The notes under the pieces were generated by a model. It was not told the origin of the DNA, did not search any database, and saw only the letters and a list, made by a program, of their open reading frames with translations. From positions 1 to 40,797 of the IMG/VR virus record IMGVR_UViG_3300045988_016629: DNA of 40,797 nucleotides. One strand, written 5' to 3'. This document shows, piece after piece, positions 13,752 to 16,922 of the stretch. The DNA comes from a virus. A program made the position numbers and the translations under genes. Numbering within the stretch: position 1 is the stretch's first letter; every line of letters starts with the position of its first letter.

Positions 13752-14831
13752 ATGGCATCATACCGTAAACGCTCAAACGGATGGGAATATCGTATAAATT
13801 ATTACGATTCTACTGGTAAACGCAAACCGAAAACTAAGGGTGGTTTCAGGACTAAATCAGAAGCTATCAAGGCTGCTGCTGAGATGGAACTTAAGCTACA
13901 AGATAACGTCAATGTCGATGAAGATATTACTCTATACGATTATTTTAAACAGTGGTGCGAGGTTTATAAGAAGCCAACTGTTTCAAAAATAACTTATAAG
14001 GCATATATCAACAGTCAGCGCAAGATAGAGTTATTTTTCGGCGATAAGAAGCTAAAATCTATTACTGCCACTGAGTACCAACGTGTGCTGAATAGTTACG
14101 CTAAAACTCATGCTCAAGATACTGTCGAGCGTTTTAATGTGCATGTCAAGGCGTGCATTGAAATGGCTGTGCATGAAGGATATATCAAGCGTAACTTTTG
14201 CAAGTTTGCTAAAATAAACGCAAAGAACAAAGGGCGTGATATTGAAACGAAATTCCTAGAGGTCGAAGAATACGAGCGATTGATCTACGAGACAAGCAAG
14301 CATCCAGAGTATGCGTCTTATGCAGCACTCTATATCATCGCCAAAACTGGTATCCGTTTTGCTGAGTGCCTGGGCTTAACAGTGGATGATATCAAACGAG
14401 ATACTGGCATGCTATCAGTTAATAAAACATGGGACTACAAGAACAATACTGGATTTATGCCCACAAAAACAAAAAGCAGTATCCGAGAGATACCGCTTGA
14501 TGATGAATTTATAAATTTTATTGACCAACTGCCACCAACCGATGATGGTAGAATACTACCCTCACTATCCAACAATGCAGTTAATAAGACATTGCGTAAA
14601 ATCGTTGGTCGTGAAGTACGTGTCCACTCATTAAGGCACACTTACGCTAGCTATTTAATTGCCCACGATATTGACTTGATTTCTGTATCGCAAGTTTTAG
14701 GGCATGAAAATCTGAACATCACACTTGAAGTTTACGCTCATCAATTGCAAGAGCAAAAATCACGCAACGACGAAAAGATAAAACAAATGTGGACAGAATG
14801 TGGACGAAACGCTTTAAAACCGCATGGTTAA
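13752..14831 (+). CDS. int: Tyrosine site-specific integrase
   Basis: 359 aa with an N-terminal SAM-like/arm-binding region. The C-terminus HSLRHTYASYLI ... LGHENLNITLEVYAH gives the R..HxxR..Y catalytic pattern. Confidence 0.9.
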   Translation: MASYRKRSNGWEYRINYYDSTGKRKPKTKGGFRTKSEAIKAAAEMELKLQDNVNVDEDITLYDYFKQWCEVYKKPTVSKITYKAYINSQRKIELFFGDKKLKSITATEYQRVLNSYAKTHAQDTVERFNVHVKACIEMAVHEGYIKRNFCKFAKINAKNKGRDIETKFLEVEEYERLIYETSKHPEYASYAALYIIAKTGIRFAECLGLTVDDIKRDTGMLSVNKTWDYKNNTGFMPTKTKSSIREIPLDDEFINFIDQLPPTDDGRILPSLSNNAVNKTLRKIVGREVRVHSLRHTYASYLIAHDIDLISVSQVLGHENLNITLEVYAHQLQEQKSRNDEKIKQMWTECGRNALKPHG

Positions 14832-15020
14832 AGGCTTTAAAATGTCCCCTGCCAACGAAAATATATAAAATTTGAGAATAAATGAAGCTGTAAAGACTTA
14901 ATTTTACTAAGTTTTTATAGTTTTTATTTTTATTTATTTTCGTAGATTTTTGAAAAAGGTGGACAGAATTGTGGTCACCGACATACTAATAGACGGACAA
15001 GAAACCGATCATTTGAACGG
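14787..15020. other. Probable attP region (core not identifiable from this window alone)
   Basis: Noncoding stretch between convergent int and the acr operon. ATGTGGAC occurs twice at 14787-14805. GTGGACAGAAT is repeated at 14789-14799 and 14959-14969. The segment between is AT-rich. Confidence 0.4.
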
Positions 15021-15443
15021 TTAAAAGATTTCGTTGTCCTGTTTCATTTCAGACAAGGCAGAAGCTGTTAGGGTCTTCTCTGCGAGATCTCCTTCTTCAA
15101 TCTCTTCGGAAGTGTAGTAATAGTCAATGATTGGGCATTTCTCTAAAATCTCGTTGTATGCTCCTCTGACAACGTAGATATACTCATCCGTTAGTCCTTC
15201 TGCAATATCTTCTTCCAACTCTTCTATCAAGTCGGAATAATCATAAGAGAATGTATATTTGCCCGAATCTATCCATTTCTGGACTTTTATGATTGTTTCG
15301 AGCTTCAGATTCTCTATTTTTCGCTCACCGTTTCTTACCCTAGTAATTGCTGAACGACTAATTCCTATTTCTCTTTCTAAATAATTAGCTGGTATAGCAT
15401 TGTTCATTAAAACTGTTTCAACTCGTGCAACATTTATTATCAT
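15021..15443 (-). CDS. HTH regulator, Aca-like (N-terminal HTH plus acidic C-terminal domain)
   Basis: IPANYLEREIGISRSAITRVRNGER is an HTH. It is the last gene of the acr operon, starting 1 nt after the AcrIIA5 stop. The C-terminal half is strongly acidic. Confidence 0.65.
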   Translation of the reverse strand: MIINVARVETVLMNNAIPANYLEREIGISRSAITRVRNGERKIENLKLETIIKVQKWIDSGKYTFSYDYSDLIEELEEDIAEGLTDEYIYVVRGAYNEILEKCPIIDYYYTSEEIEEGDLAEKTLTASALSEMKQDNEIF

Positions 15444-15444
15444 T

Positions 15445-15867
15445 TTAGATTACATCCTTCTTTGTCTTATAGCCTTTATAGTAGCATTTGATATCACGTT
15501 CCAATTTAGTAGCATTAATGAATCTGTACTTATCTAAATCAAGAGTATCAATCTTCTCAATGATTTTATCAAGTTTGTTCTCGATGATATCAACGAAGTT
15601 CAATTTACTTGCTTTGACATTAACAATTAAACGACCATTTTCTAGGTCATGATATTTGTTGTCTGCTGAATGATTTGATAAGCGAATTTCGTATTTTCCG
15701 AAATCTTTGTACGCACTATCTTTCATGCTAGATAGATACCATCCGTCAAGATTTTCGAAAGCTTTCTCTAATCTATCCATTTCTTGTGCGTATTCTCTAC
15801 GTTGCTTATTACTTCTGTTAAAACTGCGCTTTCTATATGAGTTATATCTACTTTTTCCGTATGCCAT
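15445..15867 (-). CDS. acrIIA5: Anti-CRISPR AcrIIA5-like protein (140 aa)
   Basis: 140 aa. The basic, disordered-looking N-terminus MAYGKSRYNSYRKRSFNRSNKQRREYAQ followed by an alpha/beta body matches my recollection of AcrIIA5 from S. thermophilus phage D4276. The locus (after lysin, followed by an HTH gene) also fits. Not verified by search. Confidence 0.65.
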   Translation of the reverse strand: MAYGKSRYNSYRKRSFNRSNKQRREYAQEMDRLEKAFENLDGWYLSSMKDSAYKDFGKYEIRLSNHSADNKYHDLENGRLIVNVKASKLNFVDIIENKLDKIIEKIDTLDLDKYRFINATKLERDIKCYYKGYKTKKDVI

Positions 15868-15889
15868 TTTTACTTCCTTCTTTCTTTTT

Positions 15890-16114
15890 TCACTTCATAC
15901 ATTTTGTCCCTTTTTTACGACCTGATCTATAAGCTGATAGAGTTACTTTCCCAGAAATGTTAATCCAGCAATCATAGTCTTCGTTGTATTCGTAAGGGTA
16001 GCAAGCTATTTCAGAATTGTTATTGTCTTTAGTTATTCCACGGACAACTTTCCCGCTCTCTACGTACACTTTTTCGTCATAAACTATGTGCCAACCATCT
16101 TTAATTTGTGTCAT
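15890..16114 (-). CDS. Uncharacterised small protein (74 aa) in the acr operon
   Basis: I prefer the start at 16112-16114 (MTQIKDGWHIVYDEK) because it has the same 26-nt RBS block as acrIIA5. The longer 88-aa ORF overlaps the upstream gene. Confidence 0.6.
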   Translation of the reverse strand: MTQIKDGWHIVYDEKVYVESGKVVRGITKDNNNSEIACYPYEYNEDYDCWINISGKVTLSAYRSGRKKGTKCMK

Positions 16115-16140
16115 TTTTACTTCCTTCTTTCTTTTTTTAA

Positions 16141-16473
16141 TTAAGCTACTTCCCAAACTTTTTCAGAAATGTAGTAAGTACCAATGCTATCACCATCAGC
16201 GATTACTTCGATACCGTAGTAAGCACCAACTTTGTGCATTACTTCGTTGAATTTCACTTCTTTAGCGAAATTCAACACTTGCACCATTGAATGTTTTCCA
16301 GCTTTACGCATTTTAGCTTCTACAGCTTGGAATTTAGCTACGCTAGTGTTTCCTTCTTTAGCATCAGCCCAAGCAATTTTCATAGCTTCAGAGATGTATT
16401 CGATAGCTTTACCACCGAATTTCTTAACTGCTTCTTTAGCGATTTTCCATGCGTTTGTCATAATTTTTTTCAT
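16141..16473 (-). CDS. Uncharacterised protein (110 aa), first gene of the acr operon
   Basis: MKKIMTNAWKIAKEAVKKFGGKAIEYISEAMKIAWADAK. RBS AGAGAGAGGT lies 7 nt before the ATG, directly downstream of a consensus promoter. Confidence 0.65.
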   Translation of the reverse strand: MKKIMTNAWKIAKEAVKKFGGKAIEYISEAMKIAWADAKEGNTSVAKFQAVEAKMRKAGKHSMVQVLNFAKEVKFNEVMHKVGAYYGIEVIADGDSIGTYYISEKVWEVA

Positions 16474-16505
16474 TTTGTTTACCTCTCTCTTTATCTTATG
16501 TATAC

Positions 16506-16535
16506 ATTATATCTTACTTGTTGACATACGTCAAC
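16506..16535 (-). promoter_or_regulatory. acr-operon promoter with overlapping 16-bp palindromic operator
   Basis: Minus strand reads TTGACG (16529-16534), a 17-bp spacer, then TATAAT (16506-11). The perfect palindrome GTTGAC-ATAC-GTCAAC at 16520-16535 covers the -35 element. Confidence 0.65.
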
Positions 16536-16564
16536 GTTTTTGATAAAGAAATTTATATTTTTTT

Positions 16565-16641
16565 GCAAAAAAAGAAAACCCTGACTAATTCAAGTCAGGG
16601 CGAGAGAGAGTTTATCGAAGACTCATCTTTTAACTGTGTCC
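16565..16641 (-). ncRNA. Candidate short transcript 3 (weak promoter TTGCTT-17-TACTAT at 16648-16676, ends at a strong terminator)
   Basis: Terminator CCCUGAC-UUGAAUUA-GUCAGGG (16579-16600) followed by UUUUCUUUUUUU. The body contains CUCUCUCUC (16601-16610), complementary to the SD region of the 110-aa gene. Confidence 0.3.
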
Positions 16642-16678
16642 ATTAATATAGTAGCATTTCTATCAAAATAAAGCAAAC

Positions 16679-16732
16679 AAAAAAACCTCCCTCAGAACGT
16701 ATCTGCGCTTATTCGTGAGAGGCCATTGATAT
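16679..16732 (-). ncRNA. Candidate short transcript 2 (extended -10 promoter, hairpin, U7)
   Basis: TGTTATAAT at 16739-16747 (minus strand), a GC-rich hairpin within 16686-16724, and a U7 tract at 16679-16685. Confidence 0.3.
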
Positions 16733-16749
16733 ATGTATATTATAACACA

Positions 16750-16796
16750 AAAAAATAAAAACGCACCAGACCCCGTAGAGTTACTGGCACTTTCCT
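16750..16796 (-). ncRNA. Candidate short transcript 1 (extended -10 promoter, hairpin, U-tract)
   Basis: TGTTATAAT at 16803-16811 (minus strand). The hairpin GUGCCAG...CUGGUGC (16763-16790) has G-U pairs only on the minus strand. It is followed by GUUUUUAUUUUUU. Confidence 0.3.
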
Positions 16797-16812
16797 AGAT
16801 ATATTATAACAC

Positions 16813-16840
16813 AAAAAAAGCCCCAGCAAAATGCTGAGGC
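16813..16840 (-). terminator. Rho-independent terminator of the lysis/late operon
   Basis: Minus strand reads GCCUCAGCA-UUU-UGCUGGGGC (one mismatch), followed by U7. Confidence 0.7.
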
Positions 16841-16922
16841 TTCGACCACTACTGCCATGATATCCCTATTGCAGTCTTAGGGGAGGTGATATACTCCTTT
16901 TTATTTTTTTAGTTTTCGTGGT

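Follow-up and report, generated by a model that had tools for sequence, protein, structure and literature searches.

The AcrIIA5–Aca12 operon of Streptococcus thermophilus phage Sfi21, a described anti-CRISPR locus whose regulator carries a paratox-like acidic tail

All 12 of the 12 known temperate S. thermophilus phages carry acrIIA5 or acrIIA6 (Hynes et al. 2018, PMC6060171), and the variable region of these phages is reported as the source of inhibitors for all four S. thermophilus CRISPR systems. The reference AcrIIA5 comes from phage D4276 (Hynes et al. 2017; NMR structure PDB 6LKF), where the 140-aa protein is encoded downstream of the lysin gene; homologues are described in the literature as acting on a broad spectrum of type II systems, and a basic disordered N-terminal segment is reported as essential for Cas9 inhibition (An et al. 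2020). The regulator Aca12 was described as the last gene of acr operons with a palindrome over the promoter (Song et al. 2022), and Feussner et al. 2026 (PMC13551039) report by EMSA that an Aca12 homologue binds the predicted inverted repeat in its own promoter.

Two further groups of proteins are relevant to the regulator. AcrIIA1 and AcrIIA13-15 consist of an N-terminal HTH autorepressor followed by a distinct C-terminal domain. This C-terminal domain reportedly differs among the members of AcrIIA13-15.

The second is paratox (Prx; PDB 6CKA and 7N10; Pfam PF24313), a streptococcal prophage protein that blocks DNA-binding domains, namely that of ComR. It is encoded by a stand-alone gene of about 60 aa with a toxin gene adjacent and a SigX (CIN-box) promoter, and in S. 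pyogenes prophages the gene lies next to the attachment site, at the end of the prophage (PMC6224593). Alanine substitutions of Prx E6 or D32 abolish binding of ComR (PMC8383118).

The DNA analysed here, referred to as the window, is the whole of a 40,797-nt viral record (IMGVR_UViG_3300045988_016629) and is 100% identical to X95646, the record of the lysogeny module of the temperate S. thermophilus phage Sfi21. The region between the integrase and lysin genes is very probably the acr–aca operon of this dairy-streptococcus phage, in which one promoter drives a Gp111-family gene, orf74a, acrIIA5 and aca12, with predicted autorepression through palindrome binding. As such it is an already known locus: published work covers the presence of acrIIA5 in the temperate phages of S. 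thermophilus, the Aca12 regulator, and assays on the genes next to them. One detail is unreported: the acidic tail of Aca12 resembles paratox. The features on which the analysis rests are the following (positions in the window).

14832–15020, no strand: non-coding region between the integrase gene and aca12, presumed attP (next to the integrase gene; the record calls the region lysogeny module)
15021–15260, minus strand: acidic paratox-like C-terminal domain of aca12, residues 62–140 plus stop codon (profile, profile-profile and fold matches)
15264–15443, minus strand: N-terminal XRE-type HTH domain of aca12, residues 1–60 (AF2 model, Foldseek and family membership)
15445–15867, minus strand: acrIIA5 (orf140a), Cas9 inhibitor by homology, 140 aa (PDB 6LKF, E 1.5e-85, residues 1–140 aligned to 1–140)
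15865–15887, minus strand: RBS cassette, copy 1, before acrIIA5 (23-nt exact duplicate AAAGAAAGAAGGAAGTAAAAATG)
15890–16114, minus strand: orf74a, small protein, 74 aa from ATG (97% identical to 'orf14' of phage O1205)
16112–16134, minus strand: RBS cassette, copy 2, before orf74a (23-nt exact duplicate AAAGAAAGAAGGAAGTAAAAATG)
16141–16473, minus strand: orf110, Gp111-family protein of 110 aa, opening the operon (Pfam PF07410 with 99.6 bits, cut-off 27.1)
16506–16534, minus strand: operon promoter (-35 TTGACG, 17-nt spacer, -10 TATAAT; 11 of 12 consensus positions)
16520–16535, no strand: perfect palindrome GTTGAC-N4-GTCAAC, predicted Aca12 operator, overlapping the -35 box
16541–16922, minus strand: structured intergenic region from the lysin gene to the acr promoter (terminator-like hairpins; folding z-score -3.46)

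As read from the sequence, the four genes are co-directional on the minus strand from 16473 to 15021, separated by gaps of 26, 22 and 1 nt, and lie in the variable region 3' of the lysin gene, as in related phages. A first-pass annotation of the same DNA had proposed a four-gene minus-strand operon; all four open reading frames were recovered at exactly the coordinates it gave, with a single promoter in front. Its view that the two upstream genes share this promoter holds as well: the one strong promoter, near-consensus and of housekeeping type, precedes the first gene, and no second comparable promoter was found within the four-gene cluster. The same promoter architecture is also seen 5' of aca12 operons in related loci. 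The RBS cassette said to be common to acrIIA5 and one neighbour is likewise real, the same 23 nt standing before acrIIA5 and orf74a with a chance expectation of 0, and the duplication suggests that modules may be exchanged at conserved translation-initiation sequences.

Upstream, the terminator that had been placed ahead of the operon corresponds to the terminator-like hairpins on the stretch from the lysin gene to the promoter. In this intergenic region no Rfam family scored as high as its gathering threshold. An RNA anti-CRISPR was also considered there and rejected, as the region had no similarity to the four S. thermophilus CRISPR repeats and the scores lay below the shuffled 95th percentile. 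On the other side the operon adjoins the integrase gene (13752–14831, plus strand), 3' of which a tRNA-3'-end-like GTCCCCTGCCA occurs at about 14845–14855. A 26-nt probe of the putative attP site had no exact match in the genome collection, and no tRNA genes were found within the 40.8-kb window.

By homology, the product of orf140a is AcrIIA5, the identity proposed for the third gene in the earlier annotation, and the comparison with PDB entry 6LKF bears this out over the full length. Between the Sfi21 and D4276 proteins 134 of 140 residues are identical (95.7%); the six substitutions are all at or after residue 84, leaving residues 1–83 unchanged. The basic N-terminus noted beforehand is thus identical to that of the reference, with nine K+R against one D+E in residues 1–25. 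Searches of Pfam, PHROGs and NCBIfam with AcrIIA5, orf110 and orf74a returned only the Gp111 family and unannotated PHROGs.

The last gene, orf140b (15021–15443, minus strand, 140 aa), follows acrIIA5 after the 1-nt gap. Aligned with the reference Aca12 (WP_033585136.1, taken from Song et al. 2022, Table S1), it shows 64% identity and 81% positives with 0 gaps over 140 aa; on this alignment it belongs over its full length to the published Aca12 family. The AF2 model (pLDDT 87.8) has four helices in residues 5–59, and for this part the best Foldseek matches were Aca11 and the N-terminal domain of AcrIIA15 in its complex with palindromic DNA (TM-score on target 0.75–0.79). The Pfam HTH_3 score, 17.4 bits, stays under the cut-off of 23, so it is the structure model and the family membership that support the HTH call. 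In total 971 Aca12 homologues were found, nearly all of exactly 140 aa, and aca12 stood last in each of the 73 operons that were reconstructed, among which the acr cargos were AcrIIA31 (17), AcrIIA5 (9), AcrIIA6 (9), AcrIIA30 (6), AcrIIA26 (6) and AcrIIA25 (3). The earlier reading of the last gene as an HTH protein in the position of an Aca therefore agrees with its membership of a family in which a homologue binds the inverted repeat of its own promoter.

GTTGAC-N4-GTCAAC occurs as a single exact copy in the window, and a search for further operator copies in the phage gave none at 0 mismatches and two at 2 mismatches, which is the chance level. Across related aca12 loci the palindrome is coupled to the promoter. 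In 53 of 70 related loci its core TTGAC-N4-GTCAA (up to 1 mismatch) lies no more than 2 kb upstream of aca12, with a density of 66 matches in 129 kb upstream of aca12 against 12 in 260 kb elsewhere; in some related phages a different palindrome stands at the corresponding promoter. Judging from the shared architecture, the Sfi21 palindrome would be a match to the validated Aca12 motif.

By analogy with the characterised homologues, the promoter would fire strongly once the phage DNA enters the cell. AcrIIA5 would be produced next, and Cas9 would be inhibited; Aca12, the last product, would accumulate until its XRE-type HTH binds GTTGAC-N4-GTCAAC over the -35 box and turns the operon down. Cas9 inhibition and inverted-repeat binding by the Sfi21 alleles, as well as this temporal order, are predicted from the homologues.

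Behind the HTH, the first-pass annotation had described a strongly acidic domain of about 80 aa, which the composition confirms: residues 61–140 contain 22 D+E against 5 K+R, with a pI of 4.05 and a net charge of -17. This C-terminal domain is an autonomous, separable and conserved module. Stand-alone homologues of 74–97 aa exist, and HTH-only versions of Aca12 (64 aa) exist in virulent phages. In other phages stand-alone copies lie directly downstream of Aca-like HTH genes; these contexts came from viral contigs, a scan of reference genomes having found none.

With a profile of the domain, the top sequence in an hmmsearch of the PDB was Paratox/Prx (E 0.0039, Prx residues 4–62 covered), and hhalign against a 27-sequence paratox alignment gave 91.4% probability (E 9e-7). 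Foldseek with the AF2 model of orf140b returned 7n10_A and 6cka_A (probability 1.00, TM-score on target 0.73 and 0.63), a match which, judged from secondary structure, would fall on the C-terminal domain. The Sfi21 domain itself had no Pfam match, Paratox PF24313 included, and 2 of 19 members of the C-terminal-domain family matched Pfam Paratox (best E-value 0.0019). Aca12 E75 and D107 align with Prx E6 and D32; D107 is invariant, the position of E75 holds an acidic residue in 50 of 50 Aca12 sequences and in 17 of 19 members of the wider family, and E78 aligns with Prx E9 at a position that is variable in the wider family. Sequence profiles and model together indicate that the domain is related to paratox. 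Beyond HTH matches and paratox, the PDB sequence and fold searches with Aca12 returned nothing, and the C-terminal domain had no similarity to a known Acr domain in them.

Three functions of this domain were weighed. It is possible, and we suggest it tentatively, that Aca12 is bifunctional, its HTH repressing the operon and its acidic paratox-like domain acting as a DNA-mimic-like Cas9 inhibitor ('AcrIIA36'). A 2026 paper states, at second hand, that Aca12 had been described as a domain of "AcrIIA36"; its preprint version has the words 'described as AcrIIA36'. A second activity is also consistent with the separability of the domain, as seen in the HTH-only 64-aa versions and the stand-alone C-terminal-domain proteins, with its strongly acidic and highly conserved character, and with the presence among the closest PDB HTH relatives of AcrIIA15, a proven Acr–Aca fusion. 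Set against this, the domain resembles no known Acr domain, and the interference assay of Song et al. 2022 did not include Aca12. Moreover, the protein keeps a constant length (nearly all 140 aa) and can be aligned end to end (50–100% identity) despite the differing Acrs, a pattern that a housekeeping role in the regulator would explain as well.

Such a role is the second reading, which we regard as somewhat unlikely: the domain would have no external target and would serve as a dimerisation or autoregulatory module, for example one that adjusts repression by binding its own HTH. The fixed length, and the fact that the domain aligns end to end together with the HTH although the Acr cargos are very different, are what would be expected of it. 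The stand-alone copies directly downstream of Aca-like HTH genes form a gene-fusion pattern, which suggests that the module is functionally tied to its HTH partner, and the known partner of paratox is itself an XRE-type HTH domain (PMC8383118). HTH-only versions of 64 aa, however, appear to be sufficient in virulent phages, Aca11 is only 63 aa long (Song et al. 2022) and paratox is monomeric in solution. The strongly conserved set of surface-exposed acidic residues also speaks more for a binding face than for a simple dimer interface.

Least expected of the three is an action like that of paratox itself, in which the domain would bind the DNA-binding domain of ComR or of another host XRE/Rgg-type regulator and so provide a lysogenic conversion that limits DNA uptake by the lysogen; we consider this improbable. 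It is favoured by the relationship to paratox, seen in sequence profile, profile-profile comparison and fold alike, and by the conservation of E75 and D107 as counterparts of the essential E6 and D32, but identity to paratox is only about 21%, the Sfi21 domain lacks any Pfam match, and the variable position is the one aligned with E9, the third Prx residue that is essential. The location of aca12 at the prophage end near the presumed attachment site is that of prx in S. pyogenes prophages (PMC6224593), and prx is listed solely in pyogenic, bovis and suis streptococci (PMC6224593), so that S. thermophilus would offer an unoccupied niche. In contrast to prx, the domain is part of a repressor protein whose gene has an early lytic-type promoter. 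A CIN-box promoter before aca12 was not found; the lone TACGAATA nearby lies inside orf74a and was rejected as evidence of a competence box, 1 occurrence against 1.5 expected per window being the chance level. In favour too, several virulent derivatives lack the C-terminal domain; against, the virulent phages 5093 and CHPC663 keep the full-length protein.

Aca12 may be a natural fusion of an acr-operon repressor with a paratox-type domain and, if the domain is active, an example of one small fold used for two phage tasks, a proposal made with due reserve. The same fold would then silence host competence as paratox in S. pyogenes prophages and work inside acr operons, there either as a Cas9 inhibitor in the sense of 'AcrIIA36' or, delivered along with the Acrs, as a blocker of competence or of a regulator. 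If true, anti-CRISPR loci would be linked to the control of DNA uptake, and a new family of stand-alone paratox-like genes would be placed beside Aca-type regulators, these relatives being candidates for the same function. Whatever the role of the domain, its likeness to paratox, the sole characterised relative, which covers the DNA-binding face of an XRE-type regulator, provides a structural hypothesis: an acidic face around E75 and D107 would cover a basic nucleic-acid-binding surface. Candidate partners would be Cas9, the DNA-binding domain of ComR and the HTH of the protein itself.

The first-pass annotation had further offered the two upstream genes as uncharacterised candidates for anti-defence proteins, a view which their published homologues do not sustain in this form. 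The 'orf1' of phage P7602, 83% identical to orf110, and 'orf14' of phage O1205, 97% identical to orf74a, occupy the same operon positions and gave no inhibition of SpyCas9, St1Cas9 or St3Cas9; they were assayed in E. coli against Cas9 proteins only, and the assay of orf1 was clouded by its toxicity in this host (Song et al. 2022). On this best available evidence, orf110 and orf74a are probably outside the inhibitors of these three Cas9 proteins, and remain candidates only for other defence systems. The AF2 model of orf110 was poor (pLDDT 63) and gave no Foldseek match with probability above 0.35, orf74a had no match in Pfam, PDB or NCBIfam, and orf74a is rare (4 phage records; 2 of 73 aca12 operons). 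That one or both act on other systems, e.g. S. thermophilus type III-A, type I-E or restriction-modification, is unlikely: they share the predicted Aca-controlled promoter with acrIIA5, in many phages the variable region opens with a Gp111-family gene followed downstream by AcrIIA5 or AcrIIA6, that region reportedly encodes inhibitors of all four S. thermophilus CRISPR systems and the orf1 result is weakened by toxicity, but the homologues inhibited none of the three Cas9s, orf74a is very rare, and, with no PDB chain matched by either protein, both are unlike the Acrs of solved structure.

Compared with the described systems, the Sfi21 AcrIIA5 has the same length as that of D4276, likewise lies downstream of the lysin gene and differs by six conservative substitutions. 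The gene that follows differs: it is aca12 in the temperate Sfi21, while in D4276 acrIIA5 is followed by an unrelated 123-aa protein, which was compared as a possible Aca12-like gene and found unrelated to Aca12, so AcrIIA5 appears not to require Aca12. The Sfi21 orf140b shares with the Aca12 of Song et al. 2022 both the last position in the acr operon and the palindrome over the promoter; the predicted Sfi21 operator is the GTTGAC-N4-GTCAAC variant, and more distant Aca12 loci have CTTGAC-N4-GT(C/A)AAG.

The layout of Aca12 is that of AcrIIA1 and AcrIIA13-15, and the AcrIIA15 HTH is the best PDB match for its N-terminal part in both sequence and fold. The AcrIIA1-like architecture once proposed for orf140b therefore stands as far as a separable acidic module after the HTH is concerned. 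It does not extend to the module itself, which is unrelated to the C-terminal domains of AcrIIA1 and AcrIIA15, has paratox as its nearest relative and, unlike the variable C-terminal domains of AcrIIA13-15, is conserved between loci. With paratox the domain shares the order helix, three strands, helix (in the model), an acidic character and a gene position beside the attachment site, attP being presumed in Sfi21. It differs in being about 20 residues longer at about 21% identity, and, unlike paratox, it is fused to an HTH repressor, with no toxin gene nearby and no CIN-box promoter.

The window was 100% identical to GenBank X95646 (phage Sfi21, lysogeny module) over the tested 2.3 kb, and this record names the four minus-strand ORFs orf110, orf74a, orf140a and orf140b. 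The first-pass annotation had placed all four ORFs exactly. Its common promoter was recovered as a single promoter ahead of the first gene, and its shared ribosome-binding cassette as a 23-nt exact duplicate ahead of orf74a and orf140a, where 0 are expected by chance. The features of the cluster are as follows:

16534-16506, minus strand: operon promoter (TTGACG, 17 nt, TATAAT; 11/12 consensus positions), preceding orf110
16141-16473, minus strand: orf110
16112-16134: translation-initiation cassette AAAGAAAGAAGGAAGTAAAAATG, 23 nt, before orf74a
15890-16114, minus strand: orf74a
15865-15887: second, identical copy of AAAGAAAGAAGGAAGTAAAAATG, before acrIIA5
15445-15867, minus strand: orf140a (acrIIA5)
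15021-15443, minus strand: orf140b (aca12)

Purine-rich cassettes similar to AAAGAAAGAAGGAAGTAAAAATG also stand ahead of orf110 and aca12 (repeat family D1). Intergenic gaps are 26, 22 and 1 nt, and the integrase gene lies 190 nt past the cluster on the opposite strand. The duplicated cassette may be a recombination joint for the swapping of gene modules.

Orf140a aligned over its full length with AcrIIA5 of phage D4276, whose structure is solved (PDB 6LKF, E 1.5e-85), bearing out the earlier AcrIIA5 assignment of the third gene. None of the six substitutions precedes residue 84, and the basic N-terminal segment, reportedly essential for inhibition, is identical. Homologues were found in 15 phage records, several of them annotated AcrIIA5. 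Since acrIIA5 has already been counted in 14 of 254 S. thermophilus phage genomes, and acrIIA5 (25%) or acrIIA6 (75%) in 12/12 known temperate phages of this species (Hynes et al. 2018, PMC6060171), its occurrence here is not new.

Orf140b, proposed earlier as an Aca-type last gene, was 64% identical without gaps over all 140 residues to Aca12 (WP_033585136.1, 140 aa; Song et al. 2022, PMC8934645, Supplementary Table S1), whose homologues accompany AcrIIA3, A5, A6, A30 and A31 (same table). The family comprises 971 proteins at E ≤ 0.001, nearly all exactly 140 aa. Upstream gene strings were reconstructed for 72 IMG/VR loci and the window, and aca12 was the last gene in 73/73 operons, behind variable cargos: AcrIIA31 (17), AcrIIA5 (9), AcrIIA6 (9, verified by comparison with PDB 6EYY), AcrIIA30 (6), AcrIIA26 (6) and AcrIIA25 (3). 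The core interpretation of an AcrIIA5-plus-Aca operon is right, yet already published for this very phage group.

Three unlabelled small-protein families (clusters C1, C2 and C5) were seen in 14, 13 and 9 of the 73 operons, respectively, with examples in the related phage loci L005 (3663, 113 aa; 3313, 91 aa) and L013 (3708, 93 aa) and relatives. Of these, the 113-aa family lacks a PDB relative and resembles the C-terminal part of a 214-aa HTH fusion in phage contig L080; it may be a published Acr outside the reference set used, e.g. AcrIIA3.

The two upstream genes had been called uncharacterised and put forward as anti-defence candidates. The label does not stand, homologues of both having been assayed by Song et al. 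(PMC8934645): "orf14" (phage O1205, NP_695133.1; 72/74 residues identical to orf74a) did not inhibit SpyCas9, St1Cas9 or St3Cas9, and "orf1" (phage P7602; 83% identical to orf110) likewise did not inhibit them, but its toxicity in E. coli led the authors to class it as undetermined. As prospective Cas9 inhibitors, orf110 and orf74a are therefore nothing new. Neither structure prediction nor a fold search gave a usable lead for orf110, which leaves guilt by association as the sole argument for an anti-defence role. Against Cas9 this argument has failed its test; the two proteins may act on type III-A, type I-E or other defences, and the variable region reportedly encodes inhibitors of each of the four S. 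thermophilus CRISPR systems (PMC13575424). Orf74a is rare, being present in 4 phage records and 2/73 aca12 operons. Orf110 is a member of Pfam Phage_Gp111; 71 phage records contain this family, which typically comes first in the post-lysin variable region, e.g. before AcrIIA6 in Sfi11. The N-terminal 40-50 residues of Gp111 (…AWKIAK…FGGK…Y…EA(M/L)K.AW…) reappear as the N-terminus of first operon genes that otherwise differ (window 16141-16473; contigs L077, 565-1035, and L080, 2474-2938) and also match the further PHROGs 29577 and 29806; the segment is a leader module common to these genes.

A perfect palindrome, GTTGAC-GTAT-GTCAAC, overlaps the −35 hexamer in Sfi21 and is the sole exact copy within the window. 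Of 70 loci, 53 had its core, TTGAC-N4-GTCAA (≤1 mismatch), in the 2 kb that precede aca12 (66 hits in 129 kb, vs 12 in 260 kb elsewhere), and 37 had it properly spaced from a −10 box. The variant follows Aca12 relatedness, closer relatives having GTTGAC…GTCAAC and more distant ones CTTGAC…GT(C/A)AAG. For acr-aca12 promoters, Feussner et al. (NAR 2026, PMC13551039) predicted an inverted repeat, and a purified Aca12 bound it in their EMSA; by analogy, we infer that the Sfi21 palindrome is the validated motif. An early burst from the strong operon promoter would then be followed by autorepression by Aca12, most simply through occlusion of the −35 box.

Six S. thermophilus phage loci (L008, L014, L040, L051, L055, L066) have a variable-region promoter without this core, ~1.0-1.7 kb upstream of aca12; ATCATATATGAT, another palindrome, stands between its −35 box and its −10 box and hints at a second type of regulator or operator. 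A further one, CGTATATT...AATATACG, occurs in loci L071-L073, where Aca12 is at 50% identity. A box AAGATAA(A/G)G just 3' of the −10 element is conserved in nearly all aca12-operon leaders (window 16474-16505; L004-L075). The hairpin GAGTTC-N5-GAACTC, possibly the RNA motif that Feussner et al. predict, is present in many non-Sfi21 leaders and absent from that of Sfi21. A competence-box candidate, TACGAATA (15987-15994, minus strand, inside orf74a, ~120 nt upstream of acrIIA5), was discarded because such sequences are no commoner in the window than chance would allow (3 found, 1.5 expected).

The lysin gene and the acr promoter are separated by an unusually structured spacer of ~380 nt (16541-16922, minus-strand sense; MFE -101.9 kcal/mol, z -3.46), which holds three to four terminator-like hairpins and an exact 20-nt direct repeat, TTTTTTTGTGTTATAATATA (16736-16755 and 16800-16819), in which a T-run is followed by an extended −10 box. 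It looks like tandem very small transcription units, matched no Rfam family, showed no similarity to S. thermophilus CRISPR repeats, and is conserved at ~88-92% in >200 S. thermophilus phages. On the integrase side of the cluster, right after the integrase stop codon, AAAATGTCCCCTGCCA (14840-14856, plus strand) resembles a tRNA 3' end including CCA, which makes it a candidate for the attP core; a search of the reference genome collection for exact copies of a 26-nt stretch of this site gave no match.

As had been noted, Orf140b carries a strongly acidic C-terminal domain of ~80 residues (22 D+E, 5 K+R, pI 4.05), behind 60 basic N-terminal residues (pI 9.8). Residues 62-140 alone were searched against 1.8 billion representative proteins and retrieved 28 relatives, mostly stand-alone proteins of 74-97 aa without HTH; the domain is a separable module. 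Presence and absence in related phage loci are listed here:

L111 2501-2695 (phage P4761) and L112 2801-2995 (phage CHPC640): HTH-only Aca12, 64 aa, 75-93% identical to residues 1-60
L077 1028-1668, L080 2953-4264 and L076 4001-4237: stand-alone paratox-like genes

The HTH-only form occurs in several virulent S. thermophilus phages, followed by a short ORF and a cro-like gene, consistent with a lysogeny-module deletion beginning inside aca12. In other phage contigs, the stand-alone genes (77-90 aa) directly follow genes for Aca-like HTH fusions, as two tandem paralogues in L080; that of L076 has a ParA-containing, plasmid-like context.

A profile of the domain and its relatives, compared with the PDB, gave Paratox/Prx as top sequence (E 0.0039, Prx residues 4-62 covered; entries 6CKA, 7N10, 7N1N, 8VSR). 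The Pfam Paratox model matched 2/19 family members, and profile-profile comparison with 27 paratox sequences gave 91.4% probability (E 9e-7); at profile level, the acidic domain is homologous to paratox. The AlphaFold model of Orf140b (pLDDT 87.8) has a four-helix HTH, then helix, three strands and helix. Foldseek matched the HTH part to AcrIIA15 and Aca11, and the model to Prx 7n10_A and 6cka_A (probability 1.00; TM-score on target 0.73 and 0.63); the output gives no aligned query residues, and the Prx matches were assigned to the C-terminal domain from matching secondary structure and the sequence evidence.

Three readings of its role were weighed. According to Feussner et al. 2026, who cite Johnson et al., CRISPR J 2025, Aca12 has been described as a domain of "AcrIIA36"; that the domain is itself a Cas9 inhibitor is possible, and we hold it tentatively. 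Its separability and conserved acidic face favour this, or else a paratox-like action. The fixed 140-aa length, and the end-to-end alignment of domain and HTH even beside widely differing Acr cargos, speak for a regulatory or oligomerisation module internal to the repressor, which we find rather doubtful, or for a broadly useful activity. Action on ComR or another regulator, by analogy with paratox, is unlikely.

The paratox-like nature of this domain is the one addition here and the sole basis of remaining interest; paratox is mentioned neither in Song 2022 nor in Feussner 2026, and may be mentioned by Johnson et al. The domain is named paratox-like, not a paratox, because the differences are substantial: identity is only ~21%, the Sfi21 domain alone has no Pfam match, it is fused to an HTH whereas paratox stands alone, and orf140b has neither an adjoining toxin gene nor a competence-box promoter. 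The acidic surface of paratox binds the DNA-binding face of the XRE-type domain of ComR, and binding is lost on replacement of E6, E9 and D32 with alanine (PMC8383118). These residues align with Orf140b E75, E78 and D107: an acidic residue occupies position 75 in 50/50 Aca12 sequences and in 17/19 members of the wider family, D107 does not vary in either set, and E78 is variable outside Aca12. The position of orf140b is likewise similar to that of prx, which is found next to the attachment site at the end of the prophage (PMC6224593).
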